NCBI RefSeq assembly: GCF_020969955.1
Contig: NZ_JAHDSX010000003.1
Span: forward strand, 79,470-111,469
DNA from: Allobaculum fili
GTDB taxonomy: Bacteria; Bacillota_I; Bacilli_A; Erysipelotrichales; Erysipelotrichaceae
Length of the DNA stretch: 32,000 nucleotides
Reading direction: 5' to 3'
Under the pieces are notes generated by a model. The model was not told the DNA's origin. It saw only the letters and a list, made by a program, of their open reading frames with translations, and did not search any database. Of this stretch, positions 1 to 16,422 are shown piece after piece (the stretch's first letter is position 1; each line of letters starts with the position of its first letter). The position numbers were made by a program, and so were the translations under genes.

Positions 1-3000
1 GCCGGTCAAAGCATCCGCCAAATAACAGGGTCAGTTTCCCTTTGAAATGTGACTTCATCATAGCGTCGAAGCGTTCCGGGTCATTGGCAAGGGTGAATCT
101 TCGAAGTTCTTCTACTTCCTCGAGGGTCAGATTCCCTTCGTCCAGCTTTGATTTTTCTGTCTCGTGCAGTTTTCGGCTGGCCAGAGAAATGCGTTCCTTG
201 TCCTGAGGATGCCAGCCGAATACAAAATAAATATTGAAACCGGCTGTGTTGTTAATGATCCCGCTTAAAGGTCCGGCAGATCCGGCACTGAGATTCAGGA
301 TCAGATCCCCGTAATCGTCCACGAGAATAAACAGAGGCTCTGTTCTTCTTCGCATCTCTTTGCGGACGATTTTCAGGCTGGCGGCTTTTTTCCAGTCTTC
401 GATGCCTTTTTCCTTCTGGATTTCCAGGCGGATCGTTTTGCGCTCCTTTGCGATTTTCGCAAGCTGATTGACGAACGTGTTCACCGTCTGAGCGGTCAGT
501 TTTGTCCACTCGATTCCTTCTCGATGCGTTTTGGGAAGCTCAGAAGCACTCAGTCGAATCACAGAGCCCCCGCTCTTTTTGACGGCGGTCTGAATGGCGC
601 CCATGACGTAGTTCACAGCGTCTGGATTTCCAAAGTAGACAGGCAGGGTGCTCAGCTGCTGAAACGGCAGCGCAATCGGGCGCAGCCGGCTGCGGATAAT
701 TCCAAGCGGAATGCGTTCTGGTTTGAACGGCGCGATGAACTCCTCATACGTCTGTTCCGGATCGATCTGCGTCAGATGATCGGGCTCGGCTGCGTCTTTC
801 CAGATCGTATTCGCGGTTTCAATTTGCGAAAGGATCTGACCGTAGCGTTCGGCGTCATCGAGCTGAGGGTCGAGCGCGGCTGCCTGGAACTCTAAAACCC
901 GCTTGTCCTTTCGGATGTAGCCGCGTCCGGGAAGCGGATCGGGAAAGGCCTTCGGCCGGATATCCAGCAGATCCTGATACAGATACATATCGGTCAGCCG
1001 TAAGGGCAAAGACGTCTGAATGACGCTCTGCTGTCTGGCGGTCACATTGCGCACGTCCGCGACGAGAAGCATGAACTGAATGCCGAAAGCCGGTCCGTCC
1101 CTCAGCAGCCGAAGAAGCTGATCGAGCGCCTGACGGCCCTGTCCCCTGTCGGGGAAATCGTCAAATCCGTCAATGATAAAAAACGTCAGCGGAAGGCGCT
1201 GCACTCGGCGCATGGACGCAAAGCTCGTCCGGTTATACTGCGCAAACAGTTTTTTGCGTTTTTCGAGCAGATCGTACGCAAACTGAATGAGCAGGCAGAG
1301 TTCCTCTTCGGAAGGTCGGCTCATGCACATGCCGACATGTTTCAGTTGGGAAAACATGCCCAGTGACTTTCCCGTCAGGTCGGCAATATAAAACTGCAGA
1401 TCTTCCGGTGAATTTCTATCGATTGAAGTGAGAAGAATGGTTTCCGCCAGCCAGGTTTTTCCAGTTCCCGGCTCGCCGGCAATTAAAATGTTTCCCGCAT
1501 TGGCCAGATCCAGCGTATAGGGCAGCTGTTCCTGATTTTCCGGATCATCCGTCAGACCGATCGTTACCGAATAGGAATCTTCCGGCTGCTTCAGAGAGCT
1601 CAGGCTGATCTGCGGATTGAGCGGGTCGAGCCATAAGGAAGGCACTTCGATTCCCTTCTGTCTGGCCAGATCGGACAAATAGGTCACTAAGGAAACGAGC
1701 TGCGAGCGGCCTTTTTGCCGTCTGGTCTGAATCGGCTTGGTTTTAAAATACGGTTCGCCATTGGGATCGAGAAAAAGGATTTCCTTGTTTTCCGAAGACT
1801 GCGCTTCATCGGACGGCTTATACTCGGCGCCGGTCCACGCGGACTGACCCATCGCAAAGTACTCGTCGTATCCCACCAGCATGTAAAAGCGGCCGGTTTC
1901 CTTGATTTCGGCCGCATAAGGCCGGTTGATCATGTCATTGGAGTCGCTGCGGTCCTGAACTTTCAGGCTGACGCGGAATTTGGTGTTGCTTTTGATCTGA
2001 CCCGTGACGACACCCGCCGGTTTCTGGGTCGCCAGAATGAGGTGGACGCCAAGGCTTCGGCCGATACGTGCAGTAGAAACGAGCTGATCGAGAAATTCCG
2101 GATGCTGGTCATTCAGCTCCGCAAACTCATCGGAAATAATGAGCAGATGGGAAACCGGTTCGCTCACAACGCCGCGGCGGTAAAGCTGCTGGTAGCCGTA
2201 AATGTCCATCGTTCCTTCGTTGGCAATGGATTTGGCTTCATTGAATATTTTCTGGCGGCGCTTGAGTTCACTCTCGATCGATGCCAGAGCCCGGTTCATC
2301 GTGCTTTCGTCCAGGTTGGTAATCGTACCCGCAACATGCGGCAGCTTGATTCCGCGCTGCGGATCCACAAACGCGCCCGTAAGACCTCCGCCCTTGAAGT
2401 CGATCAGAATAAACGAGACTTCGTACGGATGATAGTTAACGGCCAGCGACAGAACGTAGGAAATGATGAACTCACTTTTACCCGACCCGGTCATACCGGC
2501 GATCAGGCCATGCGGGCCATGCTTTTTTTCATGAATATCCAGCTCAAACAAAGACCCGTCGGGATGGACACCGACTGGTGCAGCCAGCGTTTTCATCGGG
2601 TTGGAATCTTTCCAGCGCTGTTCAATATCGAGATGTTCAATACGGCCGGCTTTGTACATTTCCAGAAAGGTCAGCATCGCCGGCAGTTCTTCTTCCTTTT
2701 TCTCTTTGGGACGGCGGATATTGGAAATTTCGCTGAACGCCTTCATCAGAGCGTTTCTGGAAATCGAAGCGTCCAGACAGAACAGATCCGGCTTTTCCTG
2801 ATGTTCCAGCTGCAAAATATGAATGCCTCCCTCTTCGAGAGAAAAGACTTTCGTACACTCCTTAGGCAGGATGGTCGAAAAGCTGAAAATGCTGAAGCCA
2901 AGGTTGTGTCCGGCCGTGACTGCTGTCCAGAGCGATTTTGCGGATTCAAGCAGTTCCTGCGAAAAGGAGAAGACCAGATAGTACGGCGGGTTTTCCAGAA

Positions 3001-4579
3001 CCTGTTCGCGGCGGCCTTCCTTTTTCTGCGCTTCTTCCACTCGTTCACTCAGACGCTTGGATGCTTCGGCTGCATCGGCTTCGCTGGTAATAATCCAGCG
3101 AAACTCCTGCCGGTCATCCCAGATGTGGGGCAGAAATTTTAAAAACGGATTTTCCTCCAGCATATCGCGGTCCATGACCAGAATGATTTTCAGCTCTTCC
3201 GACGCATGCAAGTAGCAGATCTGAAACAGGAGCCGGTAAAACAAGGAGAGCTTTCTCTGCAGGCTGCCGCGCACGCCGCAAATGTAATCCTCGATAAAAT
3301 CGACTGTGATCGGCGCATCCGTCAAGGCGTAATCCTGTTCGACGAGCCCGTACATTTTGAGGGCCAGAGAATCTTCATCGACGCCAAACGATCGGGATGG
3401 ATACTGAATTTCACTTTTGAGCGGAACTTTTCCTTTGCCGATGCGCAGACGCAGAAAGTCCTGATGAACCGGTCTTCTTTCCCACAGCCGTCTACGGCTG
3501 GGCAGAAAGCGGAACAGATCGTCTTCCGACGGATTGTTTTCGTTGAGGTCCTGCAGTTCCATCGCCTGAACCGTTTCAATCTGATTCTGGATTTCACTGA
3601 GATATTCGTTGTAGCGAACATACCGGCGGTTTTCGTATTCTTTTCGTTCTTTCTCGGTAAACTTCGAAGTCAGCATGGGAAACATGACCGAACTGATCAG
3701 AGACGTGAAGTTTCCATTGAGCGCACTCATTCCGGAAAACACAGCCGGGCCGCCAAGGCGCAGCAGCAGAGGAATCTTGTTGGCGCTCATGGAAAGGGGC
3801 GGCAGGTCGACGGTAATTTTGACGGGATCAAAATGAAACGCACGTTCGCGCGGCTTGCGAAAAAACGGGATGCTTTCCCTTGGTTTGGGAAGAGAAGACC
3901 ATTCCTTTAACTGAATGGGGTCCGTCAGAGGCGTCAGGGAGCGCACGACCGTATGTTCGGTCAGGCTCTGGATCGATAAAAAGCCTAATCCGACGACAAT
4001 CAGACAGCCTGGAAATTCCAGACGGTCGCCGGCCTGAAGCGAACGCAGCGAAACAAATTCGCCGTTTACGCGCGTTCCAAACGAACTGTGCTCATCGCGC
4101 AGATGCATGCCCTCCGAGGAAAGATCGATCGTCGCATGCAGACGGGAGACGAGCGGATTATCGATTTGAATGTCGTTTTCTGACATTCGGCCGATGTGAA
4201 TCTGACCGGTGCGCGGCAGGAGAAAGTTTTTCATCAAAACGGTATCTTCCGCATCCTCGATCAGCAGAACCTGCAGCCGAATCGAACCGAATTCAATTTC
4301 AAAGGCTTCCAGATTCTGAAGATCCAGACTCGTCTGCGGCTGCGTCTGATCCCAGGCTTTCAGCCGCCCGTTTCCAAAAATGGAAATTCTCTGCTCCTTT
4401 TCGTTGCGTTCAAACCAGAGGTTGATGAAGCTGTATCGATCCGAAAGCCAGATGCGACTTCGTCCGATGGGGTACTGGGACAGAGATTTGACCGTGATCA
4501 GCTGCCCTTCATGAATGAAGTACAGATTTCTGGAGCATTCTGGTACCTGTTTTAAAGAGAGTCCCTGTTCTCGACCCAT
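1..4579 (-). CDS. essC: EssC/YukB-type type VII secretion ATPase (N-terminal FHA modules, membrane segments, three FtsK/SpoIIIE P-loop domains); C-terminus cut by the left window edge
   Basis: The ORF is absent from the supplied track because it is open to the window edge. My reverse-complement translation starts at ATG 4579-4577 (SD AGGAAG about 7 nt upstream) and reads without stops to position 1, about 1526 codons. It begins MGREQGLSLKQV. FHA motifs HIGR / SRLHA / TRVNG lie at aa 128-173. Hydrophobic segment: IPLLLRLGGPAVFSGMSAL. P-loop 1 is GLIAGMTGSGKSEF (nt about 2470-2500, in frame with 4579), with Walker B LLIISDEFAEL. P-loop 2 is ILIAGEPGTGKTW (nt about 1455-1480), followed by a third, degenerate domain. 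All listed minus-strand ORFs in 1-4579 are in other frames. Confidence 0.85.
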   Translation of the reverse strand, partial: MGREQGLSLKQVPECSRNLYFIHEGQLITVKSLSQYPIGRSRIWLSDRYSFINLWFERNEKEQRISIFGNGRLKAWDQTQPQTSLDLQNLEAFEIEFGSIRLQVLLIEDAEDTVLMKNFLLPRTGQIHIGRMSENDIQIDNPLVSRLHATIDLSSEGMHLRDEHSSFGTRVNGEFVSLRSLQAGDRLEFPGCLIVVGLGFLSIQSLTEHTVVRSLTPLTDPIQLKEWSSLPKPRESIPFFRKPRERAFHFDPVKITVDLPPLSMSANKIPLLLRLGGPAVFSGMSALNGNFTSLISSVMFPMLTSKFTEKERKEYENRRYVRYNEYLSEIQNQIETVQAMELQDLNENNPSEDDLFRFLPSRRRLWERRPVHQDFLRLRIGKGKVPLKSEIQYPSRSFGVDEDSLALKMYGLVEQDYALTDAPITVDFIEDYICGVRGSLQRKLSLFYRLLFQICYLHASEELKIILVMDRDMLEENPFLKFLPHIWDDRQEFRWIITSEADAAEASKRLSERVEEAQKKEGRREQVLENPPYYLVFSFSQELLESAKSLWTAVTAGHNLGFSIFSFSTILPKECTKVFSLEEGGIHILQLEHQEKPDLFCLDASISRNALMKAFSEISNIRRPKEKKEEELPAMLTFLEMYKAGRIEHLDIEQRWKDSNPMKTLAAPVGVHPDGSLFELDIHEKKHGPHGLIAGMTGSGKSEFIISYVLSLAVNYHPYEVSFILIDFKGGGLTGAFVDPQRGIKLPHVAGTITNLDESTMNRALASIESELKRRQKIFNEAKSIANEGTMDIYGYQQLYRRGVVSEPVSHLLIISDEFAELNDQHPEFLDQLVSTARIGRSLGVHLILATQKPAGVVTGQIKSNTKFRVSLKVQDRSDSNDMINRPYAAEIKETGRFYMLVGYDEYFAMGQSAWTGAEYKPSDEAQSSENKEILFLDPNGEPYFKTKPIQTRRQKGRSQLVSLVTYLSDLARQKGIEVPSLWLDPLNPQISLSSLKQPEDSYSVTIGLTDDPENQEQLPYTLDLANAGNILIAGEPGTGKTWLAETILLTSIDRNSPEDLQFYIADLTGKSLGMFSQLKHVGMCMSRPSEEELCLLIQFAYDLLEKRKKLFAQYNRTSFASMRRVQRLPLTFFIIDGFDDFPDRGQGRQALDQLLRLLRDGPAFGIQFMLLVADVRNVTARQQSVIQTSLPLRLTDMYLYQDLLDIRPKAFPDPLPGRGYIRKDKRVLEFQAAALDPQLDDAERYGQILSQIETANTIWKDAAEPDHLTQIDPEQTYEEFIAPFKPERIPLGIIRSRLRPIALPFQQLSTLPVYFGNPDAVNYVMGAIQTAVKKSGGSVIRLSASELPKTHREGIEWTKLTAQTVNTFVNQLAKIAKERKTIRLEIQKEKGIEDWKKAASLKIVRKEMRRRTEPLFILVDDYGDLILNLSAGSAGPLSGIINNTAGFNIYFVFGWHPQDKERISLASRKLHETEKSKLDEGNLTLEEVEELRRFTLANDPERFDAMMKSHFKGKLTLLFGGCFDR

Positions 4580-4765
4580 ACAATCACTTCCTAACTAAAT
4601 CTTCCCGATTTTTCCCTGTCCTGTCCTGCCTGCCTCGGCTTCTGCACAGAAAAACACGTCGGTACGTCGACGCCATCCGGCAAAACCGTCTTTATGGCCT
4701 GCCGAGCTTAGCGTTAAGCGCAGGTTCACCCTGAGACGGCTGGCGCATGAGGCTGGCGGAACTGG

Positions 4766-4918
4766 TCAGCTTTTCGCCCGGTATTCTTCGTGAATCGCCT
4801 GAAGAATCTGCTGTTCTTTTTTCTCTTTGACATTGTTCAGATAAATCAGAACGGCCAGACAGATCACAACGCCGACAATGGCAATTCCCAGGCAGATGAT
4901 TCCGATGGTTTTGTTCAT
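4766..4918 (-). CDS. 50-aa single-pass membrane micro-protein (MNKTIGIICLGIAIVGVVICLAVLIYLNNVKEKKEQQILQAIHEEYRAKS)
   Basis: It falls below the size cutoff of the ORF track. Its ATG overlaps the kinase TGA stop as ATGA (4915-4918). A GGAGG SD sits about 9 nt upstream, inside the kinase 3' end. The product is one strongly hydrophobic helix followed by a charged tail. Confidence 0.55.
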   Translation of the reverse strand: MNKTIGIICLGIAIVGVVICLAVLIYLNNVKEKKEQQILQAIHEEYRAKS

Positions 4919-6906
4919 TCGAGCCATCCTCCGTTTTCTACTTCTTCATGCTGGGTTTCGAGCAGATCCATCTCGGTATCTCCAGTCGAGCTGTCGTACT
5001 GCGCGAAAGCCTGCTGATAATACTGATCAAAGGTGTGGAACTCCCGGGCCGTAACCGGCGCCGCCAGCTGTCGATCGAGTTCCAGGAACGCGCGGCGTTT
5101 CGCATTGTTGTAATGACCGGGCTGTACTTCTTCCATGCGGGCAATGTTTTTTTCCACTTCATCAAAGCGGCCGAGTTTCTGGTTTACTACGGCCAGATTG
5201 TTCAGATCCTGATACGAGGCATAGTTCTGATTCACAATTTCCTGAAGAAGATCCGCCTCCTTCTGGAGATACTTCTTGTCTGGCGAATTTGAAGCCAGGC
5301 GCGAATAGACGCGAATCAGCCGCTGACGCATTCTTAATCCATACGCCTCGGGCAGTTTTTCGATCGCTTCTTCTAAAAGGCCGGCTGCTTTTTCATACTC
5401 GCCGACTTCCATTTTCCAGTCCGGAAGGCGGCAGTAAATCTGATACTGCATAGCCGGATCGGCTGTCTCCATTTTCAGCGCTTCAAGCTGTTCGATCGCC
5501 TGCGCGGTATTGCCCATCGCATGCTGGATCTCGCTCTGGGCAAGGACCAGATCGCCAGACGTCAGTCCGCCAGCCTGTGCCTGTTCCAGAACGGTATTCG
5601 CCTGATCGAAGTTTCCAAGATACGCCAGCGTGATGGCGTAATCGCGCGCCAGTGCGGCGTCGTCTTCCTGTAATTCGTAGGCTGAAGCGTAATTTTGCGC
5701 AGCCGGTTCATACTCGCCAAGCGCAAACTGCGACTCAGCCAGGTTTTTCAGCGCCTGCGCGAGATAGTTCGAATTTTTGGTAATGTCATCCATCTGCAAA
5801 ACGGTATCCGCCAGATACTGTTCATTTTCCGCATATTTTCCCTGCGCGATCAGCATGTCCGAGCGCAGCAGGTCCGCATAGCCTTTGGAGGAGCTGACTT
5901 CCTTGGCTTTCTGATACGTTTCCTGCGCCTGGGCATACTGTCCGTTTCGAATCTGTTCGGTCATGGCCGTCGTGAGATGGTCATACTGATCTTTTCCATC
6001 CTGCACGATCAGGTAGACCGAGAACGCGCCGAGCGCGATAAAGAACACCAGCCCGGCAGTACAGAGGGTTTTCAGCGTTTTGACGGTCTTTCGCCATTTG
6101 CGAATGCGGCTGCTGGATTCTTCCATCACCGACAGATCTTCCTTCATCTGCTCCGCGGATTCGTAGCGATCTTCCGGCTTTTGCGCGAGCGCCTTTTTCA
6201 GAATTTCCATAAACTCTTCTGAAGTTTTCGCGGCCAGCCCGTCCCATTGCGGATCTTCCGGGGTATAAATTTTTCCCATAGCCGCGTGATAGAGGGTGAC
6301 TCCCAGCGAGTAAATGTCGCTGCGCGGGCTGAGCGCGCGAAAGCCGGGCATGGATCCGTGTGCCTGGAACTGTTCAAACACCCGTTTCTGTTCGGGAGAG
6401 CAGTAGTCTGGCGTTCCGCCGATGCCTTCCGCGCTGTTTCCTTCCATCGACGCGTTCAGATCAATAAGAACCGCGTCTCCATTTTTTCGAATCATGATGT
6501 TGGCCGGCTTTACGTCCAGATGAAGAATCGGCTTTTCCTGACGATGGAGTTCGCTTAAGGCAGAGGCAATATCCATCCCCATCTGCCGCAGCTGCAGCAG
6601 TCCAAAGTTTTCGCCGCTTTCCAGAATCTTTTCGAGCGAGCGCCCGTCAATAAATTCCATGACGGTGAAAAACTTCCCGTCGACTTCGAGGTAATCGTAG
6701 ACGGCCGGCAAATACCGGCTTTTCAGTTTTTTCAGCAGGTTGGCTTCCATGCGGTTGGCTTCCTCATCGATCGAGGGGTTAAGAATCTGCTTTAAAACGA
6801 CATACCGCCTCAGGTTGATCTGATAGGCCAGAATCACCAGGCCGCCTGTTCCGCTCCCGATTCTTCCTTTGATCTGATACATTTTCGAAAGTTCCGCTGA
6901 TGTCAT
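4915..6906 (-). CDS. Membrane Hanks-type Ser/Thr protein kinase with C-terminal TPR-repeat domain
   Basis: Track ORF 4915..6942. Codon 6942 is TTG, so I prefer ATG 6906 (MTSAELSKMYQIKG). Kinase motifs seen: G-loop GSGTGG, VVLK lysine, catalytic loop HLDVKPANIM, DLN in place of DFG, GTPDYCSPE, DIYSLG, PEDRY. One TM helix follows (AGLVFFIALGAFSVYLIV). The remaining roughly 350 aa are TPR-like repeats (GQYAQAQETYQKA, GEYEPAAQNYASAY, GNFDQANTVLEQA, GEYEKAAGLLEEA). Confidence 0.85.
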   Translation of the reverse strand: MTSAELSKMYQIKGRIGSGTGGLVILAYQINLRRYVVLKQILNPSIDEEANRMEANLLKKLKSRYLPAVYDYLEVDGKFFTVMEFIDGRSLEKILESGENFGLLQLRQMGMDIASALSELHRQEKPILHLDVKPANIMIRKNGDAVLIDLNASMEGNSAEGIGGTPDYCSPEQKRVFEQFQAHGSMPGFRALSPRSDIYSLGVTLYHAAMGKIYTPEDPQWDGLAAKTSEEFMEILKKALAQKPEDRYESAEQMKEDLSVMEESSSRIRKWRKTVKTLKTLCTAGLVFFIALGAFSVYLIVQDGKDQYDHLTTAMTEQIRNGQYAQAQETYQKAKEVSSSKGYADLLRSDMLIAQGKYAENEQYLADTVLQMDDITKNSNYLAQALKNLAESQFALGEYEPAAQNYASAYELQEDDAALARDYAITLAYLGNFDQANTVLEQAQAGGLTSGDLVLAQSEIQHAMGNTAQAIEQLEALKMETADPAMQYQIYCRLPDWKMEVGEYEKAAGLLEEAIEKLPEAYGLRMRQRLIRVYSRLASNSPDKKYLQKEADLLQEIVNQNYASYQDLNNLAVVNQKLGRFDEVEKNIARMEEVQPGHYNNAKRRAFLELDRQLAAPVTAREFHTFDQYYQQAFAQYDSSTGDTEMDLLETQHEEVENGGWLE

Positions 6907-7074
6907 AGTCTTCCCTGCTTCCCTTTTTCTCTCTGTCTGCAAGGATAGACGCCTGCGCGCGTATGGTTTTGCCTGTTCGATTCCAATGGAAAGGAACGGG
7001 CTGCGTACACGCAGACTTCTGTCCTCGTTTTCTGCTTTAGCTTTTATTCCCTGCTTAAGCGTTTACTGGCCGGC

Positions 7075-9117
7075 TTAAGCTTTTTTCTTTTTCACACCGT
7101 CAGCAGCTTCCGCTGGAGCCTGTGAAGGCTCGTCTTCTTTTTTCTGGTCCTGCGATTTTTCTTCCTTTGCTTTCAGTTCTGCGCTGTCTTTTTCATCCGG
7201 AGTCTGCGTTTTTTCTTCCGCTTCTGAAATGGCATTAACCCCAGCGTTTTCATTCTGGTCAAAGCGAACCAGTTTCCATTTCCCGTTGATTTTTACCGGC
7301 GCAACGCTGCGAATCATCCAGCCGCCGTCTTCAAACTCTCCGGCGTATTCGACTTTCAGACTGCCGTCCAGCATTTCAAATCCTTTTTTGGAATACGTTC
7401 CGATTCCATGCAGACCGGGTCTGGAAACGTCCAGGATTCCCTCTTTGGATTTCTTTCCGTCTGCGGAAATGATCGTGAACGTCCGATCTGTGTTCAGCGC
7501 TAAGAAGGGGCCCAGAGCATAGTTTTCCGTATTCACTATGCTCATGGCGGGAACTTCGCGTTCGATCAGTGCAAAACAGGGAATCTGTTTTGCATCGTAT
7601 GGACCGTAGGCTTTCCGGTTTACCGGATTGTAAATATAGTAGACATCCTCTTTCGCTTTGTCCTTTGCAGCGGGTGCCTTCTCATCGGAAGCGGCCTTTT
7701 TCTCGACGCGAACCAGAATCGGTGCGGCAGGCTGCTGGATGGCCGCTTTCTCATTTACAGTTTTTTCATTCGCAGAGGTTTCGCCGGACGCCTTTTTTGT
7801 ATCGTCTGCTCCCGCATTCGGATCCGCTTTTCCATCCTGAGCGGCATCGGCAGCAGATGGATCGGAATCGGACGCGTCGTTGTTCTCCTTAGCAATCGGT
7901 GCTTCCTGGGAAGCAATTTTTTCCGAAGTGTTTCCGACTACGATAAGTTCGAGCTTTTCGTTGAGCGCGTAATGCGTCGTCTTTTCTGCAGCCGTTTTTT
8001 CATTCTTGTCGGCTGCAGCCGGCTTTTCTTCCTTCTTCGCGGAAGAGGGCTTTTCCTCTTTCTTGACGGGCACAGCTTTTGCTTCATGCAGATCTTTTGT
8101 AATTTCGTACTGTTTGCCCTGATCGTCCGCGCGCAGTGAAACAGACTGGATGCTTTCCGGAATTTTCGCCTGCGAATTTTTCAGCAGAATCTCGCAGCTG
8201 AGCTTTCGATCCGTACGGGTAACTTTTCCCTGCGGGGTCACAAAGCCGTAAACGCCGTCGGCGGCGATCAGCCAGCCCTGTTCGCCAATTTCAATCGGGG
8301 TAAAATCGAGCGGACCTAAATCCGCAACTTTCGTCCATCCCGGATCGGTTTTTCCGTCTTCTTCCGGTCTGGTTACATTGGCGAGCTGCGTATCAAACTC
8401 TTCCTGCTCACTGTCCGGCAGACTGGCATGCGCATCCGCAACGACCTGCTGGGCTTCAATCACATCTCCGCTTTCGATCAGGACCTGATAAAGAAGCAGG
8501 TAGGCGTCGGATCGGGCGGGATTGATTTCAATTGCGGAATTCAGAAGACGGACAGCGGTCGCCACATCCGCCTGTTCAAGGGAATCCATCGCCTCATTCA
8601 TATGCTTGCTGTACTGAATCGTATCGGCAGCCGCATTCATGACTTCTTCGATCGGTACGGCCTGACCCGCTTCGGCCATCTCGTTCACGTTTTGGGTAAA
8701 CGTATCGTTTTCCTGCTGATCCAGAACGGTCTGCGCTTCTTCTACGAGCCCGATGAGCTGTTCTTCGTCGCCCTGATTCGAATACAGAGAATAGAGCTGT
8801 TCGTACGTATCGGATCGTTTCGGATCAATTTTCTTGGCTTCCAGAAGCGCTTCTTCCGCTTTGTCGTAATCCTGAGTTTCCATATATTTTTCTGCAGCCG
8901 CAATCGCTGCTTCATAGGAGTTTCCAGAATTCATCGACCGGCCCATCCAGCTGCCAAGGCCTACCCCGGCAGCGACGACTGCAGCCGTGCATCCAATTAA
9001 GATTCCTTTTTTGGCGCCTTTGGAAAGGCCGCCTTTCTTTTCGGGAGCCGGTGCTCCGCAGTTCATGCAGAACTTCATGCCGTCTGGAATTTCTGCTTTG
9101 CATTTTGGACATTTCAT
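7075..9117 (-). CDS. Zinc-ribbon / single-TM / TPR-like / K-E-A-P low-complexity protein with beta-rich W/G-motif C-terminal region
   Basis: Track ORF 7075..9186 starts with TTG. I prefer ATG 9117 (MKCPKCKAEIPDGMKFCMNCG), which has AGGAAG 8 nt upstream. The domain order is a CxxC-N10-CxxC zinc ribbon, a TM helix (ILIGCTAAVVAAGVGLGSWM), two TPR-like blocks, a long KKEEKP/AAEK low-complexity linker, then segments such as GWLIAADGVYGFVTPQGKV and INGKWKLVRFD. These segments are reminiscent of WG/KWG repeats, with low confidence. Confidence 0.7.
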   Translation of the reverse strand: MKCPKCKAEIPDGMKFCMNCGAPAPEKKGGLSKGAKKGILIGCTAAVVAAGVGLGSWMGRSMNSGNSYEAAIAAAEKYMETQDYDKAEEALLEAKKIDPKRSDTYEQLYSLYSNQGDEEQLIGLVEEAQTVLDQQENDTFTQNVNEMAEAGQAVPIEEVMNAAADTIQYSKHMNEAMDSLEQADVATAVRLLNSAIEINPARSDAYLLLYQVLIESGDVIEAQQVVADAHASLPDSEQEEFDTQLANVTRPEEDGKTDPGWTKVADLGPLDFTPIEIGEQGWLIAADGVYGFVTPQGKVTRTDRKLSCEILLKNSQAKIPESIQSVSLRADDQGKQYEITKDLHEAKAVPVKKEEKPSSAKKEEKPAAADKNEKTAAEKTTHYALNEKLELIVVGNTSEKIASQEAPIAKENNDASDSDPSAADAAQDGKADPNAGADDTKKASGETSANEKTVNEKAAIQQPAAPILVRVEKKAASDEKAPAAKDKAKEDVYYIYNPVNRKAYGPYDAKQIPCFALIEREVPAMSIVNTENYALGPFLALNTDRTFTIISADGKKSKEGILDVSRPGLHGIGTYSKKGFEMLDGSLKVEYAGEFEDGGWMIRSVAPVKINGKWKLVRFDQNENAGVNAISEAEEKTQTPDEKDSAELKAKEEKSQDQKKEDEPSQAPAEAADGVKKKKA

Positions 9118-9815
9118 ATGGGTTCTTCCTGCCTTTTCTTCTCTTTTCACTACCGTAGAAACCGCCGTTTCCCGGTCTGCCTTCAAGCCTTGCGAAGGTT
9201 CGCCAGGAAATGCGTGCTTTATCTTTAACCGTTCTTTGTGCCGGTTGATTTGTTAGGACACTCCGAGCCTTTCCTCCGCTGTGATGTATAGGAAAGGCTC
9301 GAATTCGATCTAGATATAATCGTAATTAAAATTTACTGCCTTTCTTCGTTTCCCAAAAAGAAGGGGTGATTCTGTCGGCTTTCGAACTTGTTTTTGCCCA
9401 ATCTGCGCAGTTTTTGTGTCGTAAGTTTTCCATTCTCTCGCATGCCCTGGATCATCCGCTCGCGTTCCGACCGTCCGATTGGCCGATCCGGGTGTAATTC
9501 TTTCTTCGGTTTCTCTGGCTCTCACAGCGCCGGCCTTTTTTCGGAACAGAATTTCCGGTTTGGTCCTGCAAAAAAGAGCGCCTTCCAAAAGCGCCCGGAT
9601 CCTCTCCAAAGAAAGGGTTCGTCTTTGAAGATCTCTTCTGTTTGAGCTCAGAGCAGAATTTTTACCCCTCCAAAATTCAGTTTTCTCGTACTTCTATACT
9701 GAAAACCAGATACAGGTTCGGTTCCCCCGATCGCTTCTCTTTATCGCTGAGAAGCGAAGGAATCGAATTCGCGTTCCGTTCCTGGTTTCTCAGGGAAAAA
9801 AGGAGGAAATACATT

Positions 9816-10553
9816 ATGCATTACGACTATGCAGAAGAAACCCATAAATGGGTTCTGGATGCGTTTGAAGAAATCGGCATCCACAAATTCGACGACACGA
9901 ACGACGGCCTGATCCGCTTCTCCATGCTTGTGCCGAAGTCCAAATTCAGAGCCTACGATTTCGCGATCCGGCTGTGCGATCATACCCTCACCATGTACAT
10001 GATCGCTCCCTTCCGCGGGGATGACAGCGATCGCAAAATGATGACGAAACTGGCTGTTCTTCAGACGAATGCCAACTACGGGCTGCGCAACGGAAACTTC
10101 GAAATGGATTTGCGCGATGGAGAAATCCGCTACAAAACGTACATCAACCTGGAAAACAGTACCGTAAATCCAGACGTGCTCGATGACGCGATCCACATGT
10201 CCATCGCCGCCTTCGACGTCTATGGAAAGGATATGGCGAAGATCGTCTATGGATTCGGTCAGGAATCCGAAGACGAAGAATTGGATGACGAAAAAGACGA
10301 AACGGAATCCGTTTCCGTCCACAGCGATTCCCCGATCCGCCGGCTGCGCGCGAAAATCATCGAGGCGCTCGAGATGCAGCCGACAGAAAACTTCTTTGAA
10401 CATCTTTATCAGCTCTTTGGCGGCGAATCCCCCGAAGGGGAAACCGCGGACCCGGAAACCGTCATCGATCTGGTTGCGGAAACACTCGATCTGCCCCCTA
10501 CAAAGATTCTGGAAACGATCATGGACACGCTTCGCGAGTTCAGCGGGGAGTAA
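9816..10553 (+). CDS. YbjN / type III secretion chaperone-like domain protein with acidic C-terminal tail (function tentative)
   Basis: Track ORF 9642..10553. An in-frame ATG at 9816 is preceded by AAAGGAGGAAA (MHYDYAEETHKWV). The N-terminal roughly 150 aa show the YbjN-like pattern (LIRFSMLV, DFAIRLCDHTLTMYMIAP, ANYGLRNGNFEMDLRDGEIRYKTYI). The C-terminal 90 aa are very acidic (ESEDEELDDEKDETE). The family assignment is from memory and is not an HMM result. Confidence 0.6.
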   Translation: MHYDYAEETHKWVLDAFEEIGIHKFDDTNDGLIRFSMLVPKSKFRAYDFAIRLCDHTLTMYMIAPFRGDDSDRKMMTKLAVLQTNANYGLRNGNFEMDLRDGEIRYKTYINLENSTVNPDVLDDAIHMSIAAFDVYGKDMAKIVYGFGQESEDEELDDEKDETESVSVHSDSPIRRLRAKIIEALEMQPTENFFEHLYQLFGGESPEGETADPETVIDLVAETLDLPPTKILETIMDTLREFSGE

Positions 10554-10658
10554 GAGGCCGGATCGGCTGAACCCATCCGCAAACCAGACGGATCCAGAAG
10601 GTATTTTTCTCGTCTGAGGCTTTCTGATCTGGTGACGCTCAAATACCACAAAACCATG

Positions 10659-10697
10659 CAAGGTACAGCTCAAAAAGCTGTACCTTGTCTGTTTTCG
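10659..10697 (+). terminator. Intrinsic terminator after the YbjN-like gene
   Basis: Perfect 12-bp stem CAAGGTACAGCT / AGCTGTACCTTG with a 5-nt loop, followed by TCTGTTTTCGG. Confidence 0.7.
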
Positions 10698-10787
10698 GAT
10701 GTCCTGTCCGTCTGGATCTGTCTTTTGAGGAAAGATTTACAGAATATCTTGCTTTTTACGCTATACTTAAAGCAAGGAATTATACAT

Positions 10788-11150
10788 ATGACAATTGGTG
10801 ACCGTCTTAAATACATTCGAATTCAGCGCAAGAAAACTCTTGAAGAAGTCGCGGCAGCCGTCGGCGTCAACCCGACTTCCATTTCCAAATACGAGACCAA
10901 CCGCATCAAGAACATCCCCCAGAAAAAGCTCGAAGAGCTTGCCCGCTATTTTGACGTCTCCATTTATTACATTCTGGGACTGACCGATCCGGGAGACGCT
11001 TCCCCTCTGATTCTTTCGATTGATGAACAGATGCTCGTTGAAGACTATCGAAAGCTTTCCCATGAGGATCAGGTCACCGTGCAGATTCTGGTCAAGCGGC
11101 TGCTTGAAGTGGCGTCCGATCCGAAGGATTATGTGCAGCTGACGCTGTGA
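10788..11150 (+). CDS. XRE-family helix-turn-helix transcriptional regulator (120 aa)
   Basis: Track ORF 10632..11150, with an in-frame ATG at 10788 after AAGGAA. The sequence MTIGDRLKYIRIQRKKTLEEVAAAVGVNPTSISKYETNRIKNIPQKKLEELARYFDVSIYYILG is a classic HTH_3/XRE pattern. Confidence 0.85.
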   Translation: MTIGDRLKYIRIQRKKTLEEVAAAVGVNPTSISKYETNRIKNIPQKKLEELARYFDVSIYYILGLTDPGDASPLILSIDEQMLVEDYRKLSHEDQVTVQILVKRLLEVASDPKDYVQLTL

Positions 11151-11256
11151 CCTTTTCCTGCCAGATCCTGTTCTTTATCCAAAACAGACAGAAGAATCCG
11201 GATCCATCTGGATCCATAATTTCTAGCTTCGCAAATTTATAGCTTTACGCTTCGCG

Positions 11257-11310
11257 AAAAAAGCCGCAGTCCGACACATCGATCGTGTGTCCAACTGCGG
11301 CTTTCGTGTT
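11257..11310. terminator. Bidirectional intrinsic terminator between the XRE gene (+) and the Sir2 gene (-)
   Basis: Long hairpin GCCGCAGTCCGACACATCGATCGTGTGTCCAACTGCGGC. It is flanked by AAAAAA on the left (a T-run for the minus strand) and TTTCGTGTTT on the right. Confidence 0.7.
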
Positions 11311-11372
11311 TATCAGAGATTCAACAGGAACGAAGAAACCGGGCTGGAAACGGTCTTCCTTCCAGTTCTGTC

Positions 11373-12122
11373 CTATTCTTCGGCTTTGAGTTCCTTTACG
11401 GCTTCGCCGAGAACTTTGCCGATGGAATCGTGAATGACCAGATCCGCCTGATTGTCATACGGGGTGCTGTCCCGGTTGATCAGAACAAGGTAGCGGCCGC
11501 GGAAATACTGCAGAAGTCCGGCTGCCGGGTAAACCTGAAGGCTGGTACCGCCAACGATCATGCAGTCAGCCTGAGCGATAGCCGAAACCGCCTGGTTCAG
11601 AACGCTGCCGTCCAGGGATTCTTCATACAGAACGACATCCGGTTTAATGATGGCGCCGTCTTTCGGATCTCTTGGAATGCCGTCCTGATCGCGGTTTTTC
11701 ATCGTTTCTTCGAGCGTGAAAAACGTATGGTCTTTCGTACAGTAGTTGCGCAGAACGGATCCGTGCAGTTCCAGCACGTTGAGCGATCCGGCTTTCTGAT
11801 GCAGACCGTCAATGTTCTGGGTAATTACGGCTTTCAGCTTGCCCATCTTTTCCAGATCCGCCAGCGCGTAATGCGCGGCGTTTGGAACGGCGTCGAGATA
11901 AATCATTTCATTGAAGTAGAAATTGAAAAATTCCTTGGGGTGACGGACAAAAAACGAATGGGAAAGCATCGTTTCCGCTGGATAGGGATACTTGTTTTCC
12001 TTTTTCTCTCCATAGAGACCCGTCGGAGAACGGAAATCTGGAATATTGCTTTCGGTCGAAACGCCGGCTCCGCCAAAAAAGACAATATTGCTGGAATCGC
12101 GAAGAATATCTGTAAGCGTCAT
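11373..12122 (-). CDS. cobB: NAD-dependent protein deacylase, Sir2/CobB family
   Basis: Motifs seen: GAGVSTESNIPDFRS, QNIDGLH, ELHGS, and GTSLQVYPAA in the C-terminal Rossmann part. Length 249 aa. Confidence 0.9.
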   Translation of the reverse strand: MTLTDILRDSSNIVFFGGAGVSTESNIPDFRSPTGLYGEKKENKYPYPAETMLSHSFFVRHPKEFFNFYFNEMIYLDAVPNAAHYALADLEKMGKLKAVITQNIDGLHQKAGSLNVLELHGSVLRNYCTKDHTFFTLEETMKNRDQDGIPRDPKDGAIIKPDVVLYEESLDGSVLNQAVSAIAQADCMIVGGTSLQVYPAAGLLQYFRGRYLVLINRDSTPYDNQADLVIHDSIGKVLGEAVKELKAEE

Positions 12123-12166
12123 ATGGCTTTACTCCTTTATTTTCCTGCCTGGGCAGCCGTCAGGCT

Positions 12167-12199
12167 GAAAAAAGACCGGAAGAAAATCTCTCCCGGTCT
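12167..12199 (-). terminator. Intrinsic terminator after clpB
   Basis: On the minus strand the hairpin is AGACCGG-N13-CCGGTCT followed by TTTTTTCAG. It lies 10 nt after the clpB stop. Confidence 0.65.
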
Positions 12200-12209
12200 G
12201 ATTATAAAT

Positions 12210-14783
12210 CTAGTCTTCTTTTTTAATGATGCCGACGGTGAATTTTCCGTCTTTGATATCTACATAGATATCGGCGTCGTTCATGATGCCTTCTTCAATC
12301 ATCTTACGGGCGATGTCCGTTTCGAGATAACGCTGAATGTAACGCTTCATTGGACGAGCACCAAAGACAGGGTCTACGCCGTTTTCGGCGATCTTGTCGT
12401 AGGCTTTGTCGCTGACATGCAGGCGAATATTTTTTTCAGCCAGACGATGTTCGAGTTCGCCGACGAACTTGTGCGCGATCTTGATGAAGGCTTTGTCATC
12501 GAGTGCGTTGAAGACCACGATGTCATCAATACGGTTGATGAATTCTGGACGGAAGTGCTTCTTAACTTCTTCCATGTATTTCTCATGGAGAATTTCCGGT
12601 TCCTTGGCATACTCAAACGCATACTGAGCGCCGAGGTTGGACGTCAGAATGATAATCGTATTCTTGAAGTCGACGGTAACCCCCTTGGAGTCGGTGATAC
12701 GGCCGTCATCGAGGATCTGCAGCAGAACGTTGAAGACATCCGGATGGGCTTTTTCTACCTCATCAAAGAGGACGATCGAGTACGGATTACGACGAACGGC
12801 TTCGGTCAGCTGACCGCCTTCTTCGTGTCCAACGTATCCAGGAGGCGCTCCGATCAGACGGCTCACAGCGTGTTTCTCCATATATTCCGACATGTCGATT
12901 CGTACGATATGACGTTCATCATCGAACAGCTGCTGTGCCAGCGTCTTGGCGACTTCGGTTTTACCTACGCCGGTAGGACCGAGGAACAGGAAGGAACCGA
13001 TCGGCCGGTTTTCATCCTGAATCTGCGCTTTGGAACGAAGGATGGCATCGACAACCAGATTGATCGCATGATCCTGGCCGACAACGCGTTTTTCCATTTC
13101 GTTCTGGAGATTGAGCAGTTTCTTGCGTTCGCTCTCAACCAGACGGCTGACTTCTACGCCGGTCCAGCGGGAAATAATCTTGGCGATCATTTCTTCGTTG
13201 ACGGTTTCCTGAATCAGAGCATCTTCACCGGCTTCTTCTCCCTGACGGGCAGCAATGCGGGCTTCGAGCTCAGGAATTGTTGCGTAGCGCAGTTTGGCTG
13301 CATCTTCGTAGCGGGCTTCGTTCTGGGCAGTTTCCAGATCGAGCTTGGCTTTTTCAAGGGCCTGCTTGTCTTCTTTTGCGAGTTCAATTTCACGCTTTTC
13401 GTCTTCCCACTTGGAGTAGAGTTCATCACGCTTGGATTGCAGACGGCCCATTTCTTCTTCAATTTCTTTACGGCGTTCCGCGGCTTTCTTATCGTCTTCA
13501 TCCATCAGAGACGTTTTCTCAATCTGGAGAAGCATGATCTTACGCTGCAGTTCGTCGAGTTCCTGCGGCATGGATTCCATTTCGACTTTCAGCGTCGCAC
13601 AGGCTTCGTCGACCAGGTCGATGGCTTTATCCGGCAGGAAACGGTCGGTAATGTAACGATCGGAAAGCGCGGCGGCAGCAACGAGCGAATCGTCGTTGAT
13701 GTGTACGCCATGGTAGGATTCAAAACGGTCTTTCAAACCGCGCAGAATGGAAATGGTATCTTCTACGTTTGGTTCCTTGACCTGAACCTGCTGGAAACGG
13801 CGTTCGAGAGCCGCATCCTTTTCGATGTATTTGCGGTATTCGTTAAAGGTGGTGGCACCAATCATGTGCAGTTCGCCGCGTGCCAGCATTGGCTTGAGCA
13901 GGTTGGCTGCATCCATGGAACCTTCGGTCTTGCCGGCGCCGACCAGGTTATGAATTTCATCAATAAACAGAATGATCTGACCCTGAGACTGTTTGACTTC
14001 ATCCAGAATGGCTTTCAGTCGTTCCTCAAATTCGCCGCGGTATTTCGCGCCGGCGATCAGAGATCCCATATCCAGTTCGATCAGTTTCTTGTCTTTCAGA
14101 GATTCTGGAACATCATCCTTGAAAATACGCCATGCGAGTCCTTCAACAACAGCCGTTTTACCAACGCCTGGTTCACCAATCAGAACCGGGTTGTTTTTGG
14201 TTTTACGTGAAAGGATCTGCATCATCCGGCGGATCTCATCATCACGTCCAATGATTGGATCAATTTTGCCTTCGCGTACTTCAGCGACCAGGTCGCGTCC
14301 ATATTTTTTCAGGGCTTCAAGGTTTTCTTCAGAATTCGGGGTATCCATTTTACGTCCTCCGCGGCGTTCCAGTTCAGCCTGGTAGCACTGCTGCTCGGTC
14401 AGGTTGAAAATCTGAACCAGCTTGCGGGAGATATACGACTTGTTGAACATCAGAGCAATCCAGAGCGTAGCCGTACTGAGGTAGGTCTCTTCGTGTTCCG
14501 CTGCCCATTTGGACGCGGTCTCGATGGACTTCTGAACTTCATTGCTCAGGTTGATGTTCGCGGAGCTGGATTTAACGATATTCTTTTCTTCTTCACGGAT
14601 TACGGAAAGAGCAGTCTGCGGATTCACATTCAGCCGATCAAACAGGCCTTTGAGAGTACCGTCTTTGAACATCGCCTCGAGAACATCAATCGTATCCACG
14701 CTGGCATGAGATTTTGCTTTCGCATCATTCATGGCTTCAACCAGGATCTTCTGAAGATTCTCGGACATCTTATCAAATTCCAT
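12210..14783 (-). CDS. clpB: ATP-dependent disaggregase chaperone ClpB
   Basis: 857 aa. It has an N-domain and two AAA+ modules ([16 protein letters not shown]) plus the motif [33 protein letters not shown] long coiled-coil middle domain sits between NBD1 and NBD2, which is characteristic of ClpB. Confidence 0.95.
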
Positions 14784-15273: not shown

Positions 15274-16422
15274 ATGCCCATTTCCGACAACAAAACAATC
15301 ATTCGACTCGATTCCCAATTTTTCCCGGACGCTCAGTTTCGAAAAGCCGTCTGCAAGCAGTGCAAGCTGAAGGAAGGCGATGTTCTGAGTCTCGATATTC
15401 TTTCCCGGATCGAAAACCTCGACCTCTCCTCCCTTTTTATTGACAGTCTGGAAGGCATTGAACATTTCCGCTATCTCAAAAAGCTCGACGTCAGCCTCAA
15501 TTTTTTGAAAGCGCTCGATATTTCCAGCCTCGTTTATCTGGAAAATCTCAACTGCGATGGCAATTACCTCACCGAGCTCACCCTCGGTTCACATGAACAC
15601 CTGCGCAAGCTTTCCTGCCGGGAAAACCGGTTAACCTCTCTGAACTTAAGTGAAGTGCCGGCGCTCACGTCTTTATCGTGTCAGGAAAACCGCCTGCGCG
15701 GACTGGATCTGCGTGCCTGCCCCAACATTGAAAAAGTCCGCGTGTACGCCAATCCGCTGCGTCAGCTTTTCGTCGATGGATGCTCCCGTCTGCGCAAGCT
15801 CGACTGCCGCTGCGGCCGTCTGCAGTCTCTCGTATTCAAATCCAGCCCCGCATTAAAAGAACTCTTCTGCTCCGAAAACCTTCTGACGGAACTCGATGTA
15901 AAAAGCTGTCTGAATCTGCAGGTTCTCGACTGCTCCAGCAACCTTCTTTCTTCTCTGGATCCAGGCAACCTCGAAAACCTTACCGAATTCAACTGTTCCG
16001 ATAATCAGCTCAAGGAGCTGACCGTTTACCCATGGCAGGATCTCATCGATTTTGACTGCTCGAACAACCAGCTTCATGAACTGGAAATTGTTACCTTTGA
16101 AGAACTCGAAAAAATCGACTGCTCCAGCAACGATCTCGAAAAGCTGACCGTAAACGACTGTCCCTGGCTCATGTACCTCAAATGCCAGCACAATCATCTG
16201 AAGACGCTGAACATTCTCGACTGCCCGGATCTCGCCCATCTCAACTGCTCCGATAACCAGATTACGCAGCTGAACATTAACGACTGCATTTCTCTGGTCA
16301 GTCTCAACGCCTCCAGAAACGACCTTAAGGAAATTGATCTGCGGGAGTGCGAACAGCTTTCCCACGTCAACGCCGATCATAACGTCCGCGTTTACGCGAA
16401 AGACATTCCGTTAAACAGCTGA
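15274..16422 (+). CDS. Leucine-rich repeat protein, about 14-15 repeats of 21-22 residues, no signal peptide
   Basis: GGAG lies 8 nt upstream of the ATG. The N-terminal cap FFPDAQFRKAVCKQ is followed by regular LxxLxCxxNxLxxLxxxxCxx units (LRKLSCRENRLTSLNL, LTSLSCQENRLRGLDL, LQVLDCSSNLLSSLD, LIDFDCSNNQLHELE, LAHLNCSDNQITQLN and others). The first 40 aa contain no hydrophobic leader. Confidence 0.85.
   Translation: MPISDNKTIIRLDSQFFPDAQFRKAVCKQCKLKEGDVLSLDILSRIENLDLSSLFIDSLEGIEHFRYLKKLDVSLNFLKALDISSLVYLENLNCDGNYLTELTLGSHEHLRKLSCRENRLTSLNLSEVPALTSLSCQENRLRGLDLRACPNIEKVRVYANPLRQLFVDGCSRLRKLDCRCGRLQSLVFKSSPALKELFCSENLLTELDVKSCLNLQVLDCSSNLLSSLDPGNLENLTEFNCSDNQLKELTVYPWQDLIDFDCSNNQLHELEIVTFEELEKIDCSSNDLEKLTVNDCPWLMYLKCQHNHLKTLNILDCPDLAHLNCSDNQITQLNINDCISLVSLNASRNDLKEIDLRECEQLSHVNADHNVRVYAKDIPLNS

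Follow-up and report, generated by a model that had tools for sequence, protein, structure and literature searches.

Kinase-linked type VII secretion systems (T7SSs) with an FHA-bearing ATPase have been known since 2024, when Garrett, Higginson & Palmer defined T7SSc to T7SSj (microLife; PMC11217815). Their membrane Ser/Thr kinases (TscD, TsdD, TseD and TsjD) have the topology of EssB and a conserved active site. The kinase-associated TsxC ATPases have FHA motifs competent for binding phosphothreonine (pThr), and separate FHA proteins and PPM phosphatases are also found, a phosphatase being present in the kinase-bearing subtypes c, e and j. By analogy with type VI secretion systems (T6SSs), phosphoregulation was proposed for the T7SS (PMC11217815). 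Here, we consider a gene cluster encoding a receptor-type Hanks Ser/Thr kinase and an EssC-type ATPase in a stretch of 32,000 nucleotides from Allobaculum fili (Erysipelotrichaceae; contig NZ_JAHDSX010000003.1, positions 79,470 to 111,469), referred to below as the window. The region is, in our judgment, probably the upstream half of a kinase-associated T7SS cluster of the T7SSc/d/e/j kind, with a recruited PknB-type kinase and gating of EssC through pThr and FHA. The arrangement was noticed in a first-pass annotation of the sequence; the observation is accurate and more than chance, and the mechanism drawn from it is reasonable. No new principle emerges.

Several described components recur in what follows. 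TsjD has C-terminal tetratricopeptide repeats (TPR), TseK combines a Zn-ribbon with a transmembrane (TM) segment, and TsdH and TseH are tiny single-TM proteins (PMC11217815). T7SSe, which occurs in Bacillota, comprises TseA1/A2, B, C, D, F, H, I, J and K; T7SSj, which is without TseH, has been reported in a few Clostridium species only (C. acetobutylicum / C. felsineum) (PMC11217815). The pseudokinase EssB/YukC binds the FHA domains of EssC/YukB (PMC11217815, PMC13037476). Outside the T7SS, PknF and Rv1747 of M. tuberculosis are an established pair of a kinase and an FHA-bearing ABC transporter (FHA-ABC; PMC3138270). For Bacillota, the idea that phosphorylation controls type VII secretion still comes mostly from bioinformatics. 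A literature search turned up experimental support only in a 2026 preprint on the Esx system of an actinobacterium (PMC13622651), in which a kinase of the Schaalia Esx locus was shown by experiment to phosphorylate Thr in the disordered region of an output protein with a C-terminal FHA domain. The first-pass annotation had taken such a switch to be undescribed; this does not stand, since active kinases, EssB topology, the FHA link and the T6SS analogy are all in PMC11217815, and PMC13622651 is an experimental precedent.

A receptor kinase beside an FHA-bearing EssC

The genes of the cluster occupy positions 2–9117 of the window, all on the minus strand, and domain scans and reading of the sequence found each where it had first been placed. 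From upstream to downstream, the features are:

7075..9117, minus strand: Zn-ribbon/TM/TPR protein (Pfam Zn_Ribbon_1 and TPR_19; one TM segment)
4915..6906, minus strand: receptor-type Hanks Ser/Thr kinase, 663 amino acids (aa) (Pfam Pkinase)
4766..4918, minus strand: 50-aa single-TM micro-protein (sequence reading; ATGA overlap with the kinase stop)
4656..4673, minus strand: putative weak terminator-like hairpin (consensus scan only; 6-bp stem, T-rich tail)
2..4579, minus strand: EssC/TsxC type VII secretion ATPase (TIGR03928, FtsK_SpoIIIE twice; crosses the left end of the window)
4256..4531, minus strand: first FHA-like β-sandwich of EssC, degenerate, residues 17–108 (AF2 model, Foldseek)
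4013..4198, minus strand: second FHA domain of EssC (FHA2), residues 128–189 (Pfam FHA, Foldseek)

The kinase is treated here in its 663-aa ATG form, which is on record in public assemblies. (An exact look-up of a 675-aa form with a TTG start found nothing in these assemblies, and that start was rejected.) It matches Pfam Pkinase with an E-value of 1e-30 (107.5 bits) and does not match Pfam YukC even at E<=10. The kinase domain, approximately residues 10–262, is cytoplasmic and is followed by a single TM segment (283–301) and an extracytoplasmic, all-helical TPR domain of ~360 aa (302–663; AF2 model and hydrophobicity), a bitopic topology like that of EssB. The catalytic signatures had been read correctly, and the full Hanks-type set is present: Gly-rich loop, VAIK Lys, αC Glu, catalytic loop, DFG Asp, APE Glu, subdomain IX Asp and subdomain XI Arg. 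Across an alignment of 42 homologues, at 23–40% identity, the invariant positions are G19 and G22 (GSGTGG), K39 (VVLK), E54 (αC), D131, K133 and N136 (HLDVKPAN), D149 (DLN), E172 (SPE), D197 (DIYSLG, subdomain IX) and R247 (subdomain XI). That every catalytic residue is invariant over such divergence argues that catalysis is used, and the protein is, to judge from its sequence, a bona fide Hanks kinase with purifying selection on its catalytic residues. The AF2 model (pLDDT 90.8) has its nearest PDB folds in S. aureus PknB/Stk1 and M. tuberculosis PknA/PknI, with neither EssB nor YukC among the top 50 fold matches; by sequence, too, the best solved relative is PknB. The protein is TsxD-like, and its ectodomain resembles the TPR domain described for TsjD.

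The catalytic loop reads HLD, which makes this a non-RD kinase, as was first noted; others of the family have HSD or HGD, and many are RD kinases (HRD). A separate observation concerns the DFG motif, which is replaced by DFN across the kinase-TM-TPR family (P0001–P0119), with DLN here (window 6452–6460, residues 149–151) and DYN in a few members. The generic PknB-like matches at the bottom of the list retain DFG, and DFN is a clean signature of the family. The identical kinase was found on contigs in 33 blocks of the collection searched; named relatives, none above 32% identity, come from Lachnospiraceae, Clostridia and Oscillospiraceae.

EssC is 1584 aa long, of which the first 1526 lie inside the window; the full length was taken from an identical locus on a public contig (L002). 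Truncated by the window, it still scores 803.9 bits against the NCBIfam model TIGR03928 (T7_EssCb_Firm; cut-off 778.4), and it has two FtsK_SpoIIIE stretches and a third P-loop region. Residues 1–240 are modeled as two β-sandwich domains (AF2, pLDDT 84.8). Foldseek matches them best, over ~215 columns each and at 13–15% identity, to the N-terminal tandem FHA of Geobacillus EssC (5fwh), of YukB from the B. subtilis T7b core unit (9qks) and of S. aureus EssC (1wv3). FHA2 matches Pfam FHA with an E-value of 5.6e-14 and has the motifs GR (130–131), SRLH (145–148, SxxH) and VNG (171–173). In the published data, GR and SxxH are 0% conserved in T7SSb EssC and 98–100% conserved in the kinase-associated TsdC, TseC and TsjC (Table S1 of PMC11217815). 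Taken alone, FHA2 is best matched in Foldseek by FHA-2 of Rv1747 (37% identity, rmsd 3.2 Å), followed by EmbR, GarA and OdhI, and both the fold and the 37% identity support its predicted pThr competence. (A hydrophobic stretch at residues 189–207 was rejected as a TM segment; it is made up of the last β-strands of FHA2.)

To which subtype does this ATPase belong? When its first 760 residues are compared with the machine-read (OCR) N-terminal ~640-aa representatives in Fig. S2 of PMC11217815, the best match is TseC, with 204 bits and 29.5% identity over 570 aa, followed by TsdC (118 bits), TsiC and TsfC (100 bits) and TsjC (79 bits); the N-terminal ~600 aa of S. aureus EssC reach 45 bits. The published TseC–TsdC and TseC–TsiC pairs score 214–233 bits, which puts EssC at about inter-subtype distance from TseC. 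This placement is approximate, resting as it does on OCR partial sequences, since the homologues retrieved with EssC were a metagenomic clade and remote actinobacterial EccC proteins only, none of them a named TsjC or TseC reference. The cluster had been called a T7SSb-like module with its EssB slot filled by a kinase, which must be revised: the ATPase is far nearer TseC than S. aureus EssC, and EssB, EsaA and EssA are missing. Among the genes called in the 10 kb to each side of the kinase and across the remaining window, none has a Pfam or NCBIfam match to any of these three, and no protein of the locus matches PF10140 (YukC).

The genes beyond the left end of the window are seen in L002, where eight genes follow essC, and then an acyltransferase. 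Directly after essC are genes for an 83-aa YukD-like protein and four small helical proteins (60, 106, 108 and 98 aa); further downstream come a 314-aa FHA protein, a 103-aa protein and a 157-aa Zn-ribbon protein, here termed the FHA / ~100-aa / Zn-ribbon triad. The YukD-like protein matches Pfam YukD with an E-value of 4.4e-5 (24.6 bits, just below the gathering score of 27). It is 31–37% identical (E about 1e-13) to 82–85-aa proteins of three loci with related EssC proteins (L091, L093 and L094), the L094 counterpart of which has a recorded YukD match; its C-terminus is LYLL, with no Gly-Gly. A ubiquitin-like YukD/EsaB (TsxB) component is thus present. The small helical proteins (60–108 aa) have PDB profile matches to ESAT-6-like/EsxA proteins only at E 0.25–0.4, and the WXG motif is absent from this species' copies. 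In the 314-aa protein, a C-terminal FHA domain (E 3.3e-14) follows an N-terminal two-thirds that is acidic and apparently disordered; DUF6382 was not matched at E<=1. With EssC, the YukD-like protein and the ~100-aa helical proteins, the locus has the near-universal type VII trio, without the T7SSb-specific EssB, EsaA and EssA. It had been correctly noted that WXG100, YukD, EsaA and EssA genes are absent upstream of essC; the YukD-like and WXG100-like genes lie downstream of it, past the left end of the window. Looking there, in the 10 kb left of the kinase, thus yielded the YukD-like gene and a sub-threshold WXG100 match, and neither EsaA nor a PP2C phosphatase.

Neighborhoods of the kinase and EssC in relatives

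Seven neighborhoods of the kinase were sampled: the window, L007, L008, L009, L090, L091 and L092. EssC lies within 10 kb of the kinase homologue in five (the window, L008, L009, L090 and L091). In L091 (kinase 37% identical), the order is kinase, 50-aa peptide, two genes, EssC, YukD-like protein and small proteins; in L090 (39%), it is kinase, 48-aa peptide, seven genes and EssC, the last found by tblastn at the edge of the locus. EssC is 2.5 to 8 kb from the kinase in these two. In L008 and L009 (27–30%), EssC is on the upstream side, two to four genes away from the kinase. L007 (32%) has an FHA-ABC transporter, an FHA protein, the kinase and a 48-aa peptide but no EssC, the absence of which is not established because the contig ends 6 kb past the kinase. 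L092 (30%) has neither EssC nor an FHA protein near the kinase. Linkage of kinase and essC is thus frequent, while direct adjacency is not conserved, and the fixed slot envisaged for the kinase does not exist: in relatives it is two or seven genes from essC, or downstream of it.

The surroundings of the kinase are shared as well. Common to the window, L090 and L091 are the kinase with its micro-peptide, the 680-aa Zn-ribbon/TM/TPR protein, the triad and EssC. (As the L090 locus stops within the EssC gene, YukD and the small helical proteins have been confirmed for the window and L091 alone.) FHA-ABC transporters lie beside the kinase in L090 (7461–9890), L091 (6050–8359) and L007 (7091–9457, two FHA matches recorded), each with a small FHA protein beside it (6908–7402, 5491–5991 and 9470–9982, respectively). 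In L090 and L091, the FHA-FHA-ABC transporter and small FHA protein are divergently upstream of the kinase, and the triad next to the transporter is homologous to the one downstream of the window's essC. All triad proteins are matched in L007 too, non-contiguously.

The 50-aa peptide has a TM segment at residues 7–25 and a short basic/acidic cytoplasmic tail, and its ATG overlaps the stop codon of the kinase (ATGA), which indicates translational coupling, as had been proposed. Peptides of 48–62 aa follow the kinase in L007 (12010–12156), L090 (11995–12141), L091 (11030–11182) and L009 (12078–12266). The start codon overlaps the kinase stop or directly adjoins it in L007, L090, L091 and the window; in L009 it comes 17 nt later. 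A basic stretch and a D/E-Y-x-R-K-like tail characterize the micro-protein. Since it is present in L007, with no EssC in view, it looks like a partner of the kinase rather than a T7SS-specific part; possibly, it is TsdH/TseH-like. The protein encoded upstream of the kinase, 680 aa as called, is as first described, with Zn_Ribbon_1 (E 1.4e-7) and TPR_19 (E 3.8e-12) matches and one hydrophobic segment (residues 38–56), followed by a low-complexity linker and a conserved C-terminal domain. Its orthologues in L090 and L091 are 682 and 685 aa long and match at both termini. Conserved within the cluster, it could be a TsxK-like (Zn-ribbon and TM) protein with an extracytoplasmic extension.

From the side of EssC, the picture is more varied. 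In L093, two PP2C genes are followed by a 685-aa kinase and a 1196-aa PASTA kinase, the latter directly upstream of EssC; in L094, a PP2C gene and a 939-aa NPCBM/RCC1 kinase are downstream; in L095, there is neither a Hanks kinase nor PP2C. On these sampled neighborhoods, linkage of a Hanks kinase to this EssC clade is frequent and not obligatory, the order is not fixed, and the ectodomains differ.

A scan of genome contigs with the single kinase found no relative. When it was repeated with the family alignment, near-full-length relatives were found only in L010, L011, L012 and L016, and the result is unsuited to synteny statistics; the search was swamped by generic Hanks kinases because its patterns were universal kinase motifs. 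Two loci from the repeat search, L014 and L060, happened to have EssC-like genes. In L060 (Leptolinea sp., a metagenome-assembled genome of Chloroflexota), an EssC-like ATPase (5838–9665) is directly followed by two Hanks kinase genes (10001–12860); by tblastn, it is 28.6% identical over ~1090 aa, with the FHA region unmatched. This suggests that kinase-linked EssC-like loci also occur outside Bacillota and Actinomycetota.

The other genes of the window are housekeeping genes: an HTH regulator, SIR2, ClpB, a leucine-rich repeat (LRR) protein, an amidohydrolase, YitT, RsmF, an M23 peptidase and MetA. Domain scans of the window proteins found no additional secretion genes among them. Divergent from the cluster, on the plus strand at 9816–10553, is a gene for a 245-aa protein with an acidic C-terminal tail, which has no Pfam or NCBIfam match and no relative in the other loci examined. 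The 382-aa LRR protein (15274–16422, plus strand; LRR_4 E 2e-29, of the EndoS type) lies 6 kb from the cluster; LRR proteins are also found near the kinase or EssC in L008, L009, L091 and L093, which may be coincidence. Two long plus-strand open reading frames (ORFs), 1715–3142 (475 aa) and 11430–14210 (926 aa), were rejected as shadow ORFs antisense to EssC and ClpB. ClpB (12210–14783, minus strand) is 89% identical to its counterpart in Allobaculum sp. and 88% to that in Ileibacterium valens, which places the host in the Erysipelotrichaceae. A Lachnospiraceae host, suggested by kinase homologues named Merdimonas or Lachnospiraceae, was rejected on these figures. The host is probably a gut bacterium, to judge from sample names that point to gut metagenomes. 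Outside the species, the closest homologues of the kinase, EssC and the Zn-ribbon/TPR protein are at most 45% identical, some of them from assemblies of the class Clostridia. The cluster may have been horizontally acquired, or else its relatives are sparsely sampled.

What does the kinase control?

An intact Hanks kinase with EssB topology, encoded next to an EssC whose FHA domain has GR and SxxH, makes a switch from kinase to pThr to FHA the most reasonable mechanism. In this respect the first-pass annotation was right, although the idea was already a published working model. The TPR ectodomain, possibly with the Zn-ribbon/TM/TPR protein and the micro-peptide, would sense an envelope or extracellular cue. 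The kinase would then autophosphorylate and phosphorylate threonines on itself or its partners, for which its own juxtamembrane segment is a candidate, as is the 314-aa FHA protein in its disordered region. FHA2 of EssC and the stand-alone FHA protein could dock on these phosphothreonines, and docking would gate how the secretion ATPase assembles or works. Computation shows which genes and domains are present, which residues are conserved, the topology (by hydrophobicity), the likeness in fold and the make-up of the neighborhoods; what we infer from this is an active kinase, a ligand for its TPR ectodomain, the proteins it phosphorylates, the docking of FHA domains on pThr, an effect on secretion, and what the micro-peptide and Zn-ribbon proteins do. 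The kinase would thus seem to play an EssB-like role, as a partner of FHA domains, without being an EssB homologue recognizable by sequence.

Several observations weigh against this reading. In FHA2, Phe replaces the Asn of the canonical S-x-N-G-T loop (SSFGT) in this EssC subclade, while distant members of the clade retain an S-T/A-N-G loop, and the 314-aa FHA protein also is without the canonical Asn; binding of pThr by either is therefore plausible and not assured. The match of the 106-aa protein to Pfam WXG100 (E 0.058; 0.0016 for the L093 relative) is sub-threshold. No PP2C phosphatase was found in the 10 kb left of the kinase or in the 27 kb that the window extends to the right of it (L002 was covered for 10 kb on either side of the kinase, and the window from 9 to 32 kb), and one may be encoded elsewhere in the genome. 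Finally, the kinase family also occurs beside FHA-ABC transporters, and once without any FHA partner, so EssC need not be its main or only target.

The most serious alternative, which we consider rather unlikely, is that the kinase, micro-peptide, Zn-ribbon proteins and FHA protein are a self-contained envelope-signaling cassette with its main output elsewhere, for example in an FHA-ABC exporter, as in PknF-Rv1747, or in transcription via the stand-alone FHA protein. Its adjacency to essC would then mean that envelope or conflict genes lie together, and the ATPase would not be directly controlled by the kinase. In the two closest relatives (39% and 37%), an FHA-FHA-ABC transporter with a small FHA protein does lie divergently next to the kinase; L007 is arranged likewise and shows no EssC, and L092 has neither. 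The triad of the window's cluster is also the companion of the ABC transporter in L090 and L091, with matches in L007 as well; the phosphorylated FHA output protein of PMC13622651 acts transcriptionally, and PknF-Rv1747 is an established precedent for such a pair. On the other hand, no FHA-ABC transporter was seen at this locus, where EssC is the only FHA-bearing membrane machine and is separated from the kinase-peptide pair by a gap of 186 nt, the one holding the putative hairpin. L090 and L091 have EssC within 2.5 to 8 kb in addition to their transporters, the L007 contig is short, and this EssC clade is also found with independent kinases whose ectodomains are different.

Could the kinase instead be the counterpart of EssB itself, a constitutive FHA-binding hub for which catalysis is dispensable, and the active ancestor of the EssB pseudokinase? 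The bitopic topology is the same, the gene adjoins essC in this genome, and EssB/YukC binds the FHA domains of EssC/YukB; moreover, models of TsxD fit onto the bitopic TraF dimer, which is EssB-like. We nevertheless regard this as improbable. The kinase has no similarity to YukC/EssB at E<=10, its nearest folds are active kinases of the PknB/Stk1 type, its catalytic residues are invariant in divergent homologues, and its gene does not stay in one position across relatives. Kinases with TPR, PASTA and RCC1/NPCBM ectodomains, which are unrelated, occur with this one EssC clade, and repeated recruitment fits this better than descent from an EssB ancestor; the suggestion of an ancestral active state of EssB is therefore not upheld. 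Least credible of all, and very improbable, is that the FtsK/SpoIIIE-type ATPase translocates DNA for a mobile element that has the kinase as unrelated cargo. Relaxase and MobC genes do lie ~3.5 kb from the EssC-like gene of L008, and L094 has an integrase ~9 kb away, but the EssC equivalog cut-off is passed here while the FtsK model scores only 54.5 bits (cut-off 1566), the N-terminus is the tandem FHA of EssC/YukB, a YukD-like gene and ~100-aa helical proteins follow in every clade member examined, and this locus has no mobility genes.

Control of EssC by the kinase through pThr and FHA thus remains the reading we prefer, and what the locus adds to the published systems is modest: an Erysipelotrichaceae host, the combination of a TseC-like ATPase with a TsjD-like TPR kinase, and the lack of a PP2C or Ig-like protein in view. 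Also new is the cassette of kinase, micro-peptide, Zn-ribbon and FHA proteins, which in relatives is paired with an FHA-ABC transporter as well. As proposed here, it consists of the DFN-type TPR receptor kinase, the coupled 50-aa TM peptide, the Zn-ribbon/TM/TPR protein and the triad, and its sharing between EssC and FHA-ABC exporters is based on the seven sampled neighborhoods. Tentatively, and with less confidence than in the reading itself, one might see in this cluster, L090 and L091 a T7SS subtype outside T7SSa–j, in which a portable pThr cassette serves both EssC-type and Rv1747-like FHA-ABC motors without a dedicated PP2C. If the same cassette is wired to an FHA-ABC exporter in relatives, as the sampled neighborhoods suggest, the cassette, and not the secretion system, would be the evolutionary unit. 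The locus extends kinase-associated type VII systems to gut Erysipelotrichaceae and, with kinase, partner peptide and FHA-bearing ATPase within 7 kb, offers a compact test case. Existing knowledge of EssB is not overturned.

Comparison with known systems

The closest described system is T7SSe. Shared with it are an ATPase closest to TseC, an FHA domain with GR and SxxH, a membrane Ser/Thr kinase with an intact active site, a YukD-like protein, two tandem ~100-aa helical proteins, a separate protein with a C-terminal FHA domain, Zn-ribbon proteins and a tiny TseH-like single-TM protein. However, the ATPase is at inter-subtype distance from TseC, and in the locus as seen here there is no PPM/PP2C phosphatase (TseF) and no large Ig-like TseI-type gene (signal peptide, C-terminal TM). 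The FHA protein is without DUF6382, whereas TseJ has it N-terminally in addition to the C-terminal FHA; the kinase ectodomain is a TPR domain, reported for TsjD and not for TseD; there is an extra Zn-ribbon/TM/TPR protein, and the host is of the Erysipelotrichaceae. T7SSj has the C-terminal TPR kinase (TsjD), pThr-competent FHA motifs in TsjC, and J (FHA) and K components, as here, but the ATPase reaches only 79 bits with TsjC against 204 with TseC, and neither a TsjF phosphatase nor TsjI was seen.

The likeness to canonical T7SSb is in the tandem-FHA N-terminus of EssC, the ubiquitin-like YukD/EsaB and the bitopic protein of kinase fold encoded beside essC. In contrast to T7SSb, EssB/YukC, EsaA and EssA are absent, the kinase is catalytically intact and PknB-like, FHA2 keeps GR and SxxH (0% conserved in T7SSb EssC), and likeness to S. 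aureus EssC over the N-terminal ~600 aa reaches only 45 bits. The Esr threat-sensing systems of Actinomycetales Esx loci (PMC13622651) similarly have a Ser/Thr kinase and an FHA output protein within a type VII locus; as in the 314-aa protein, the FHA domain of that output protein is C-terminal and comes after a disordered region, which bears Thr, and extracytoplasmic sensing is coupled to threonine phosphorylation. Esr differs, however, in its phylum, in its sensors (a β-propeller filament, vWA, MoxR and transglutaminase), in the pseudophosphatase N-domain of its output protein, in a mainly transcriptional readout and in an EccC without FHA. Lastly, PknF-Rv1747 and the T6SS pairs PpkA-Fha1 and Agrobacterium TssL-Fha share the basic arrangement of a membrane Hanks kinase beside an export ATPase or machine controlled through FHA and pThr. 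The likeness to PknF-Rv1747 extends to the 37% identity between FHA2 and Rv1747 FHA-2 and to the FHA-FHA-ABC transporters that adjoin relatives of the kinase. The exporter here is nevertheless an EssC-type T7SS motor, and the likeness is one of logic, not of family.

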